A stretch of 39,670 nucleotides of DNA from a virus, in the UHGV virus genome UHGV-0120812; one strand, 5' to 3'. Of the stretch, positions 7,603 through 10,718 are shown one piece after another. Position numbers and translations under genes: made by a program. Within the stretch, counting starts at the first letter, position 1; each line of letters opens with the position of its first letter. The notes under the pieces were generated by a model. That model did not search any database. It was given only the letters and a program-made list of their open reading frames with translations, and had not been told where the DNA came from.

Positions 7603-7929
7603 TCAAATAAGTGGTTTGCTGCCTAATTTCATTTTCTGGCGACCAACACAAGTCACACCCATTTCACTACGTGGCTTGCTGTACCATGTGCGCTGATTCT
7701 TGCGCTCAATACGTTGCAGGTTGCTTTCAATCTGTTCGTGGTATTCAGCCAGCACCGTAAGGTCTATCGGATTCAGTGCGCTTTCTACTCGTGATTTCGG
7801 TTTGCGATTCAGCGAGAGAATAGGGCGGTTAACTGGTTTTGCGCTTACCCCAACCAACAGGGGATTTGCTGCTTTCCATTGAGCCTGTTTCTCTGCGCGA
7901 CGTTCGCGGCGGCGTGTTTGTGCATCCAT
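7603..7929 (-). CDS. N: Antitermination protein N
   Basis: MDAQTRRRERRAEKQAQWKAANPLLVGVSAKPVNRPILSLNRKPKSRVESALNPIDLTVLAEYH... matches lambda N (arginine-rich motif), with a divergent C-terminus. Confidence 0.92.
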   Translation of the reverse strand: MDAQTRRRERRAEKQAQWKAANPLLVGVSAKPVNRPILSLNRKPKSRVESALNPIDLTVLAEYHEQIESNLQRIERKNQRTWYSKPRSEMGVTCVGRQKMKLGSKPLI

Positions 7930-8125
7930 CTGGATTCTCCTGTCAGTTAGCTTTGGTGATTGGATGGCCGGCGCTGAACCCCGGCTTACTGGTTAGAGCG
8001 CCCGCACTACCAGTGACGCTGTCTTGAGGCGCAGATTGGTTACTGCTTGCCATGAGCGCTGTTTATACATTGGTCGAGCATCAGCCTGCTCATTCATCCA
8101 ATCCCAAAGCCTTCTGCTTTGAATG

Positions 8126-8158
8126 CTGCCCTTCTTCAGGGCTTAATTTTTAAGAGCC
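8126..8158 (-). promoter_or_regulatory. nutL (boxA plus boxB hairpin)
   Basis: Minus-strand reading gives GCTCTTAAAAATTAA followed by GCCCTGAAGAAGGGC, the lambda nutL boxA/boxB arrangement. Confidence 0.8.
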
Positions 8159-8197
8159 TCACCTTCATGGTGGTCAGTGCGTCCTGCTGATGTGCTT

Positions 8198-8260
8198 AGT
8201 ATCACCGCCAGTGGTATTTATGTCAACACCGCCAGAGATAATTTATCACCGCAGATGGTT
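8198..8260 (-). promoter_or_regulatory. pL promoter with oL1-oL2-oL3 operators
   Basis: 17-mers TATCACCGCCAGTGGTA, CAACACCGCCAGAGATA, TATCACCGCAGATGGTT; minus-strand -35 TTGACA and -10 GATACT. Confidence 0.85.
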
Positions 8261-8418
8261 ATCTGTATGTTTTTTATATAGATTTATTTTTTGCAGGGTT
8301 GTGTGGATTGAAGGTGATCGAGAGATCTGAATTGCGATGTTTAGTGAGTTGTATCTATTAATTTTGAAATAAATACAATTGGTTATGCGTTTTTTGGGGG
8401 GGGGCGTTAGGCAAAGAA

Positions 8419-8443
8419 AACCCGGCGCTGAGGCCGGGTTGTG
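8419..8443. terminator. Bidirectional hairpin terminator downstream of the cI operon
   Basis: AAAACCCGGCGCTGAGGCCGGGTT: GC stem flanked by A-run and T-run; lies 9 nt past the stop at 8453. Confidence 0.7.
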
Positions 8444-8452
8444 AGGAATTAA

Positions 8453-8638
8453 TTACAGAGCAAAGAGATCATGCATTAGGTTGCTGTTCATCTGGTGGTT
8501 GAATTGATACGGCTCCAATTCCTTCTTGATCTCGTTCAGGTGTTGTTCCGCTTTTTTTGCCAGATCGTGACCTTCTTGGATCTGGCTTTCCAACATCTTG
8601 TTGAGAATTTCCATCTCCGGTTGCAGATTCTTCGGCAT
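8453..8638 (-). CDS. Hypothetical small helical protein, overlapping the 3' end of the peptidase-like ORF in another frame
   Basis: 61 aa from internal ATG (AGGA RBS about 8 nt upstream): MPKNLQPEMEILNKMLESQIQEGHDLAKKAEQHLNEIKKELEPYQFNHQMNSNLMHDLFAL; composition more protein-like than the overlapping frame. Confidence 0.4.
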   Translation of the reverse strand: MPKNLQPEMEILNKMLESQIQEGHDLAKKAEQHLNEIKKELEPYQFNHQMNSNLMHDLFAL

Positions 8639-9470
8639 TAGCTTTTTCCTCTTTTTGTAGATACGTTGTACAATCAATAACCCTCGGCTTTCCAAATGTT
8701 GGAATGTCACCATTATGAATTTTGTCACAGAAAAGATTATAGAGTATTTCTGTTATACCTTTAGGATGCTCAACACACTTGAAAAGTTCCTTGGCTTCTT
8801 TTCTGTCGATAACAAATCCATGTGAAGGATATGAGGCTATTAGTTTGCCTAACGCCCCTTCTTTTAGGCTGCTTGGTTTGTCTGCTAATCGTTGGCCATA
8901 AGTGATAGCTATACTCATTGCGCGCTGATGTTCACCAAGCTTTATTGGATCTATCTGTGCGGCCATAGGTGCTATCAACGCTTCTGTAAGTCTGGTCGCG
9001 ATATCAGCAGACATTTTGGTACTTATCTGATTTTCGTATCTTATCTTAACAAGGTGTGAGTTAAACGCTGAAATAGAGCGTTCCTTTAGAGCATCAAGAG
9101 CTGTCATGATAGCTAAACCAGAACTCATCTCACCTATTTCATCGTTTTTTTTCAGTTGGATATCTAATGGCCCAAGCTCCCCCATGTCACCAATAACAAG
9201 TTTATTGGCTGCTATAGCTATTAGTGTACCAGCACTTTTGCATGGTCCAACAACTAAAAGTGTTACCGTTTCATAATGGTGCTGTAGAGCTCTACCTATA
9301 CGATAACCTGCATTTGGATCACCGCCATAAGTAGCAACACAGAAGATAACATTCTCTTTTAATCCATGTTGTGACTTACGTTTCTTGATTTCATTGGTGA
9401 GATCAAGATAACCATCACGATGAATATCGCCTGTATACACATAAACATCATGATTTTCAATAGAATTCAT
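8469..9470 (-). CDS. Clp-fold (ClpP/SppA/SDH-like) serine peptidase-like protein in the rexAB position; 3' end uncertain
   Basis: 333 aa ORF co-oriented with cI, 115 nt downstream of it; motifs VIFCVATYGGDPNAGYRIGRAL and VVGPCKSAGTLIAIAANKLVIGDMGELGPLD resemble the Clp-protease fold; last ~55 residues are low-complexity. Confidence 0.65.
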   Translation of the reverse strand: MNSIENHDVYVYTGDIHRDGYLDLTNEIKKRKSQHGLKENVIFCVATYGGDPNAGYRIGRALQHHYETVTLLVVGPCKSAGTLIAIAANKLVIGDMGELGPLDIQLKKNDEIGEMSSGLAIMTALDALKERSISAFNSHLVKIRYENQISTKMSADIATRLTEALIAPMAAQIDPIKLGEHQRAMSIAITYGQRLADKPSSLKEGALGKLIASYPSHGFVIDRKEAKELFKCVEHPKGITEILYNLFCDKIHNGDIPTFGKPRVIDCTTYLQKEEKANAEESATGDGNSQQDVGKPDPRRSRSGKKSGTTPERDQEGIGAVSIQPPDEQQPNA

Positions 9471-9585
9471 TCGTTAAACTCCCTGCTGTGGTTACGATGA
9501 ATGTATTCATGTTGAAGCTAAGCCATAGCGGCTTGTCATCATCACCAATCTGGCGGAATTGACTGTTCATAAATCACAATTGGAA

Positions 9586-10302
<717 letters not shown>

Positions 10303-10309
10303 TTAAATC

Positions 10310-10380
10310 TATCACCGCAAGGGATAAATATCTAACACCGTGCGTGTTGACTATTTTACCTCTAGCGGTGATAATAGTTG
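10310..10380. promoter_or_regulatory. oR3-oR2-oR1 operators with divergent pRM and pR
   Basis: TATCACCGCAAGGGATA (oR3), TAACACCGTGCGTGTTG (oR2), TACCTCTAGCGGTGATA (oR1); -35 TTGACT and -10 GATAAT of pR. Confidence 0.85.
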
Positions 10381-10390
10381 CATGTACTAA

Positions 10391-10600
<210 letters not shown>

Positions 10601-10639: not shown

Positions 10640-10718
10640 ATCAAATTAAACCACACCTATGGTGTATGCATTTATTTGCATACATTCAATCAATTGTTAT
10701 CTAAGGAAATACTTACAT

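Follow-up and report, generated by a model that had tools for sequence, protein, structure and literature searches.

The 39,670-nucleotide (nt) virus genome UHGV-0120812 (the window, by which we mean this whole stretch of DNA) is a lambda-immunity prophage that carries, on its minus strand, a gene for a ClpP-fold serine protease of 333 amino acids (aa). We find that the 3′ end of this protease gene is, with high probability, also a selected protein-coding gene in the +1 frame, which would encode a separate helical protein of 61 aa, and comparison of homologous loci shows that both frames are maintained across the protease family. A first-pass annotation of the window had placed two open reading frames (ORFs) here, a 333-aa frame ending at 8469 and a 61-aa frame in the +1 phase running from an ATG at 8638 to a stop at 8453, and had left three explanations standing: a genuine overlap of two genes, a programmed +1 frameshift that yields a fusion of peptidase and helix, or an indel in the sequence. 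All of its ORF coordinates are right, as is its assignment of an AGGA ribosome-binding site before the ATG. The elements of the overlap are the following.

8469..9470, minus strand: ClpP-fold (‘SDH family’) serine protease gene, 333 aa, stop codon TGA at 8471-8469; protein WP_001084325.1
8453..8638, minus strand: overlapping +1-frame gene, ATG at 8638-8636, TAA at 8455-8453; 61 aa, helical and coiled-coil-like
8472..8638, minus strand: dual-coding stretch, 167 nt (about 56 protease codons) shared by frame 0, which encodes the protease tail, and frame +1
8647..8651, minus strand: Shine-Dalgarno (SD)-like GAGGA, 8 nt upstream of the internal ATG
8453..8468, minus strand: extension of the +1 gene past the protease stop, 16 nt, encoding the C-terminal ...DLFAL and the stop codon

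The evidence that carries this finding is the codon position at which substitutions fall. A scan of genome contigs with the single protein gave one locus only, and we used instead scans of IMG/VR and metagenomes with alignments, which yielded the DNA of ∼200 loci, with 79 distinct 3′ regions among them. Clade A is represented by 12 loci with at least 70% identity, for which a tree was built from the gene body; clade B (L012 and L035-L039) has 57-62% identity to the window protein and clade C (L041-L050) 49%. Substitutions were counted as parsimony (Fitch) steps at positions 1, 2 and 3 of the protease codons, with the 45 variable codons that precede the internal ATG (the linker) as an internal control. 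The steps at positions 1/2/3 among the 12 clade-A homologues are as follows.

Protease body: 106/42/660
45-codon linker before the ATG: 48/38/135
Overlap: 92/40/43

In the overlap, change at position 3 falls four-fold, and protease position 1, which is the wobble position of the +1 frame, becomes the fastest of the three; the distribution of substitutions over codon positions differs between tail and linker with a chi-square p of 4.5e-13. The linker, although it also evolves fast in frame 0, retains the normal codon-position pattern. Viewed codon by codon, the switch in phase sits at the codon that contains the ATG, and in the two preceding codons position 3 still changes 5 and 3 times. If recombination had made the tree wrong, the steps would be inflated to the same extent at all three positions, which cannot create such a switch.

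Similarly, when the ratio of nonsynonymous to synonymous substitution rates (dN/dS, calculated by NG86) is taken over the overlap, the +1 frame has values of 0.05-0.4, which show purifying selection on its amino acid sequence, and most values of the protease frame lie at 0.8-3.2, with two close pairs at about 0.3 in the latter. Inflated dN/dS is the usual result when a second gene restricts the synonymous sites of a frame. The first-pass annotation had proposed an alignment of homologous loci and a Ka/Ks analysis of both frames, and had named, as the outcome that would count against it, homologues that conserve the peptidase frame alone; that is not what is observed, and both lines of evidence support a genuine overlap of two genes. 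Its further impression, that real coding sequence is more apparent in the helical frame than in the peptidase tail, is borne out by the dN/dS values as far as the +1 frame is concerned, but the tail itself is not bogus, since it is found family-wide and is kept open.

The same phase switch is seen independently in clade B and in clade C. We also compared 29 nearest-neighbour pairs, phylogenetically independent and drawn from across the whole IMG/VR and metagenome sample; their differences per position are 0.148/0.074/0.497 in the body and 0.322/0.182/0.190 in the tail. The tail alignments were usable for 27 of the pairs, and in 21 of these position 1 of the tail exceeds position 3 (sign test p = 0.006). 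In distant clades, conserved motifs of the +1 product, particular to each clade, also occur over frame-0 tails that look unrelated to one another, namely ILQELNRxQ...KEIEVLQxVF in L149, L153, L154 and L156 and QxQMDKAYEFARMV in L107, L128, L194, L211 and L220.

Further support comes from the five codons past the protease stop, which would be intergenic if there were no second gene, so that conservation of their residues argues for the +1 gene. Relatives retain residues of the (D/E)LFAL type here (ELFAL, ELLAL, ELFSF and others), and the codons vary synonymously (CTC/CTA, GCT/GCC, CTG/CTC). In one locus (L029, IMGVR_UViG_2563367136_000003), a change of CAA to TAA ends the protease four codons early and leaves the +1 residue as it was (AGC to AGT); this early stop is a natural ‘frame-specific’ mutation.

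Other sources of constraint on the overlap were considered and rejected. An antisense gene is not a candidate, as all three antisense frames have stops in most homologues; in the single antisense ORF of the window, the wobble would coincide with the slowest position. Consistent openness is confined to sense frames 0 and +1, and sense frame +2 is full of stops in homologues. RNA structure was rejected because it would not yield a periodicity of 3 nt; a search of Rfam for this region found nothing.

Several observations weigh against a second gene or limit how firmly it can be asserted, and they begin with the openness of the +1 frame itself. An open +1 frame is expected over this tail, since stops in the +1 frame need a T at position 2 of a protease codon, that is, a hydrophobic residue, and the tail has few of these: it is 21% D/E, 12% K/R and 10% hydrophobic, and the body is 34% hydrophobic. 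When the protease codons of the window are reshuffled synonymously, no stop interrupts the +1 frame as far back as the ATG in 45% of trials; over the 79 distinct loci, the median number of open codons is 53 after reshuffling and 63 as observed. ATGs in the +1 frame (from NAT followed by G) and GAGGA (from Glu-Glu) likewise arise easily in an acidic, hydrophobic-poor tail; the ATGs and SD-like strings are thus partly by-products of composition, and initiation at 8638, like translation of the +1 frame, is something we infer from sequence-level evidence. The sequences in the enrichment tests are related by descent, which makes the p-values optimistic, and a few distant pairs (for example L172/L188), in which the tail alignments are poor, do not display the phase switch. 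Finally, the 61-aa protein has no meaningful match in Pfam, PHROGs, NCBIfam or PADLOC, and nothing on it was found in the literature searched.

We rejected ORF openness as evidence for a second gene, since the nulls from synonymous shuffling predict it. The +1 frame is open for at least 40 codons before the protease stop in 70 of the 79 distinct loci, an openness for which composition largely accounts. Homologues were examined down to ∼44-49% protease identity, and in all of these the frame remains open across the tail, with its stop a median of 7 codons beyond that of the protease. Composition is also part of the reason why the +1 peptide looks helical. The comparison carries a methodological warning, in that an alternative frame that is open over a disordered tail is to be expected from composition, and only the phase of substitution separates a real overlap from a by-product.

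Could the +1 ORF then be no gene at all, either a compositional by-product or the result of an indel in sequencing or assembly? The shuffling results are what such a by-product would give, and gene callers almost never call the +1 ORF. However, the phase of substitution, the dN/dS values, the post-stop extension and the clade-specific +1 motifs all require selection on the +1 frame, and an indel is at odds with a locus that is identical or near-identical in at least 13 independently sequenced complete E. coli genomes and with an architecture that is kept across the family. We therefore regard the absence of a second gene as very improbable, the comparative data already refuting it, and the indel that the first-pass annotation had considered is rejected with it.

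The tail of the protease in frame 0 (NAEESATGDGNSQQDVGKPDPRRSRSGKKSG...) is maintained as well. When the +1 peptide is held fixed and its synonymous codons are reshuffled, frame 0 runs into a stop after a median of 12 codons, compared to a median of 55 observed, and this openness is significant (p ≤ 0.05) in 54 of 77 loci. Every family member has a disordered tail of similar length, acidic and polar at first and then basic, and K305 is invariant in clade A. Changes that are synonymous in the +1 frame, and that alter tail residues, run at roughly 60% of the body synonymous rate in five of the six pairs in which the body rate is unsaturated, which hints at some weak constraint on the residues of the tail. 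With frame 0 kept open and its composition kept, the sequence comparison points to dual coding, in which an ordered helix and a disordered tail are specified by the same nucleotides.

An alternative that we find unlikely, if less so than the absence of a second gene, is that only the +1 gene matters in the overlap and that the frame-0 tail is sequence-indifferent read-through, which needs merely to be open and without structure; such a tail could carry the ribosomes that translate the protease to the end of the operon, or could be a passive spacer. This would fit the frame-0 dN/dS of about 1-3 in the overlap, the predicted disorder of the tail, the tolerance of L029 for the loss of the last 4 tail residues, and the fact that the tails of distant clades cannot be aligned. 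But an indifferent tail would not account for the similar length and the acidic-then-basic character in every family member, nor for the invariant K305; the reduced rate of +1-synonymous changes hints at constraint, and the openness of frame 0 is itself strongly selected. We thus prefer the interpretation in which both frames are maintained.

The start of the +1 gene was examined in the same homologues. Each member of clade A has its ATG at the same position or no more than two codons away, preceded by GAGGA or GGAG at a distance of 7-8 nt, and clades B and C likewise have ATGs close to where their open +1 stretch begins. The glutamate codon within the SD-like sequence is GAG in 11 of the 12 clade-A representatives (GGG in L022), without any change at its third position, at which the neighbouring codons change 3-5 times. 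An ATG with an SD in the +1 frame is present in 55 of the 79 loci compared to 32.8 ± 3.9 after synonymous shuffling, a figure that is inflated by relatedness. The first-pass annotation had extended the region up to 8728. A GTG there would give a 91-aa version of the product, but this start is not conserved, and other alleles have +1 stops upstream of the ATG. Since constraint in the +1 frame begins at the conserved ATG, the SD is kept and relatives have +1 stops upstream, an independent start is favoured, and we think it likely that the +1 gene starts on its own at ATG 8638 and that the overlap is an old one and truly dual-coding.

These same data bear on the proposal of a programmed +1 frameshift near the start of the tail, which would yield a protease-helix fusion and leave the 61-aa ORF no separate gene. 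The helical frame is indeed +1 relative to the protease, the SD-like GAGGA lies just upstream, and SD elements are known to stimulate +1 shifting in prfB; moreover, a metagenome protein (P0128) is a chimera of both frames joined at a run of seven A residues that is prone to indels or slippage. Nevertheless, we judge a frameshift to be improbable. Constraint in the +1 phase begins at the ATG codon itself, just after two codons that still vary at position 3, and in relatives the +1 frame is interrupted by stops 12-25 codons ahead of the ATG. The homologues share no shifty stop or hungry codon, and the interval from the last upstream +1 stop to the ATG holds nothing that is conserved. A fusion product would also give no reason for frame 0 to stay open for ∼55 more codons, and the retention of an ATG at or near the same place throughout clade A, and near the +1 start in clades B and C, is not expected of it. 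The frameshift fusion suggested by the first-pass annotation is thus unsupported, and the independent start remains our preferred interpretation.

The run of A residues lies inside the overlap.

8551-8557, minus strand: A7 run, read as GGC AAA AAA AGC in the protease frame and as GCA AAA AAA GCG in the +1 frame

This run, the only homopolymer here, was considered as a programmed slippery site and rejected, as it is found only in the allele of the window (AAG AAA elsewhere). In P0128, a 2-nt deletion in the A7 run of a metagenome contig results in a chimeric protein of 55 aa, in which the +1 N-terminus is joined to the frame-0 tail. The run is an error-prone spot that is able to swap the two frames, and P0128 is no sign of programmed shifting.

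The 61-aa product has the sequence MPKNLQPEMEILNKMLESQIQEGHDLAKKAEQHLNEIKKELEPYQFNHQMNSNLMHDLFAL, a stretch of which is MPKNLQPEMEILNK... AlphaFold2 models it as a single helix over residues 3-60, with a predicted local distance difference test (pLDDT) score of 86, in agreement with the amphipathic helical peptide of the first-pass annotation. The 3-4 heptad spacing of hydrophobic residues from Met9 to Tyr44 suggests a coiled coil. At the C-terminus of the +1 peptide, the last five residues are 58% hydrophobic, compared to 35% in the rest. The +1 stop is followed after 12 nt, rather than the 9 nt given earlier (a trivial difference), by the stem of a terminator.

The 61-aa protein is essentially unannotated and was missed in every record that we examined: its ORF is absent from the annotation in 13 of 13 public records inspected. 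The protein occurs in only 8 clusters of 5.8 billion, and a profile search of 1.84 billion representatives gave 4 matches, all of them to the same ORF. We sought stand-alone, non-overlapping homologues of the 61-aa protein and found none. A nucleotide search of sequenced phages matched the terminator region alone, and a search in protein mode matched one Klebsiella and one Burkholderia phage, neither of which has the small ORF annotated. The loci at which gene callers report the 61-aa ORF are solely those with a protease pseudogene or with a protease truncated by a contig end. The protease is a pseudogene in L057 (NCBI GCA_041363605.1, contig JBFNRF010000027.1) and in L058 (Logan SRR15097944_52), through a frameshift in one and, in the other, a stop codon that replaces Arg in the GEHQR motif; both loci retain an intact 61-aa +1 ORF.

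The protease appears, from its sequence, to be a divergent member, or subfamily, of the SDH/SppA/ClpP fold group. Its RefSeq name is ‘SDH family Clp fold serine proteinase’, and its best family matches are PF01972, NfeD1b_N, ClpP and phrog_21683. The PF01972 score of 29.6 bits is just below the cut-off of 31.3, and that of NF047768 (36.7) is below the cut-off of 250; phrog_21683, a family of unknown function, matches at 8e-185. Most of the homologues have a precomputed match to PF01972, which is why we place the window protease in a divergent subfamily. The family is large (1574 matches), with members of 320-340 aa, and the literature searched holds no description of this subfamily or of the overlap.

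The protein is laid out as a folded body of about residues 1-270 followed by a disordered tail at about 273-333. S79 (in GPCKSAGT), a candidate nucleophile, H181 and D222 are invariant in the alignment. No solved structure of the protease was detected by sequence search. The AlphaFold2 model, made from an alignment of 26 close sequences, is of low confidence (pLDDT 56), and the tail (273-333) has a pLDDT below 35 and is predicted to be disordered. A Foldseek search with the N-terminal alpha/beta part of this low-confidence model gave matches to ClpP and SppA at an E value of about 2e-4, which are weak because a model made from so few close sequences is poor; one of them, 4kwb, is B. subtilis SppA with its own C-termini bound in the active sites.

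The protease gene lies within a lambda-type immunity region, of which the neighbouring features are the following.

start at 10659, plus strand: cII
10400-10600, plus strand: cro
9586..10299, minus strand: lambda-type cI repressor gene (from its ORF and annotation), directly upstream of the protease and given for context only
9457-9570, minus strand: 37-aa ORF (MNSQFRQIGDDDKPLWLSFNMNTFIVTTAGSLTNEFY) between cI and the protease, with a 14-nt overlap with the protease start and no RefSeq annotation
8419..8440, minus strand: intrinsic terminator stem, a hairpin with a T-run, which closes the repressor-protease operon at the position of lambda tImm
8226-8198: pL (TTGACA-17-GATACT)
7929-7603: N

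The protease gene thus occupies the slot that is held by rexA-rexB in lambda, after cI and before a tImm-type terminator and pL/N. On the minus strand between cI and the protease, we looked for a terminator and found none, and relatives carry a hairpin and T-run at the position equivalent to that of the terminator at 8419..8440. An S24/helix-turn-helix (HTH) repressor is the upstream neighbour on the same strand in 14 of 36 related loci. The locus is carried by 28 complete E. coli genomes as three alleles, with nucleotide identity of 100%, 96% and 90%, and adjoins at least two different repressors there.

The protease module behaves as a mobile cassette (window 7603-10600 and L001-L011). Among E. 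coli prophages, the same protease allele (at least 99% identity) is found either behind a lambda-type cI or behind a different repressor of the LexA family, and the E. coli cassettes (L001-L011) differ in their N genes and other downstream neighbours. Homology of the cassette is limited to the interval from ∼120 nt upstream of the protease ATG to the terminator. We considered the 37-aa upstream ORF as a third component of the module and rejected it, as it is kept only in the three E. coli alleles and other family members have unrelated leaders. The sole close homologue (80%) among the sequenced phages of the INPHARED set is in Klebsiella phage ST13-OXA48phi12.4 (L221; MK422450.1, 30886-32083), in which the module follows an XRE/ImmA-IrrE pair that is transcribed divergently; a 71-aa ORF upstream overlaps the protease start by 14 nt, the same length as the overlap of the unrelated 37-aa ORF of the window. 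A leader element, GCCGAAAA..ACAxAxAGCACGAA-hairpin-CGTT...CAGGGAAA, is common to L030-L033, L036 and L048, ∼40-110 nt upstream of the protease start, and is not in the allele of the window. The hairpin stem of this element has seemingly compensatory changes, and the element could be a regulatory RNA or a protein-binding site.

We propose the following mechanism for expression of the pair. Ribosomes that start at the protease ATG at 9470 would read frame 0 through the acidic-then-basic disordered tail and stop at 8469, while other ribosomes would start at the internal ATG at 8638, with its own GAGGA, and read the +1 frame. The latter reading would yield a separate single-helix protein of 61 residues with a hydrophobic C-terminus, ending 16 nt past the protease stop and before the terminator. 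In the lysogen, the repressor (pRM-type) transcript may serve for both products, as it does for lambda rexAB; as there is no terminator before the module and a strong one after it, co-transcription with cI in the lysogen is probable.

The overlap forces the two genes to be inherited and expressed together, and a helix and protease that act together would be the most economical reading. The 61-aa protein may be a partner of the protease, be it as a regulator, an inhibitor, an adaptor or a substrate, and may signal docking or degradation through its hydrophobic C-terminus. More tentatively, and with less than even confidence, we suggest that it is an obligate partner (inhibitor, antitoxin or adaptor) of a widespread ClpP-fold protease that prophages express in the lysogen, the two forming a two-component module, plausibly for phage exclusion or control of the switch, in the rexAB slot of many temperate phages. 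If so, the second component has escaped notice through being encoded within the first, and the dual coding would be ancient and family-defining; a module expressed in the lysogen would also have a second component that was overlooked by all domain-based screens. In either event, a conserved protein-coding gene, in a module that adjoins the repressor in many temperate phages of Enterobacterales and beyond, is missed by annotation pipelines in all the records that we examined, and any knockout, truncation or functional study of the protease 3′ end would unknowingly affect two genes. The pair is also a clean natural example of an ordered helix and a disordered tail on shared nucleotides with both frames maintained.

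Among known systems, the lambda spanin genes Rz and Rz1 are similar in being a same-strand gene-within-gene of a lambdoid phage, in which Rz1 lies in the +1 frame of Rz with its own start signals and the co-inherited products act together. The pair described here differs in that the small ORF is not fully embedded but runs 5 codons past the stop of its host gene, in that the host gene encodes a ClpP-fold protease in the immunity region rather than a lysis protein, and in that the small protein is a soluble-looking helix rather than a lipoprotein, with cooperation of the two products being what we infer from the arrangement. A second likeness is to lambda C and Nu3. C is the S49 ClpP-fold head protease, and the scaffold Nu3 is made from an internal start in its 3′ part; there too the 3′ part of a ClpP/SppA-fold protease gene also encodes a largely helical second protein. 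However, Nu3 is in frame with C, without dual coding, and belongs to a head-assembly module, whereas the second frame of the window is +1 and the gene adjoins the repressor.

With respect to the protease alone, the likeness to the SppA/ClpP/‘SDH family’ group (PF01972, S49 relatives) is seen in the RefSeq name, the best Pfam and NCBIfam matches and the Foldseek results, but the window protein is below the curated cut-offs, and we know of no description for SppA or ClpP of a family-specific disordered tail with an overlapping gene. With respect to position, the module resembles lambda rexA-rexB, the accessory exclusion genes that are co-transcribed with cI, as it stands in the same slot directly downstream of cI, a placement after S24/HTH repressors that recurs in relatives; the two pairs differ in that they have no relationship in sequence or fold. 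A search of PADLOC-DB v2 gave no match for the protease, the 61-aa protein or the 37-aa upstream ORF. Finally, the pair is like the overprinted viral genes for disordered proteins, in which a disordered partner with inflated dN/dS opposite a constrained frame is the classical signature of dual coding. In the usual case, the disordered protein is not the tail of a long annotated gene, as it is here, where the ordered helix is the hidden one. As judged from these sequences, the phage carries a same-strand pair of overlapping genes that stands out because it is unannotated, occurs family-wide and is demonstrably maintained in both frames.

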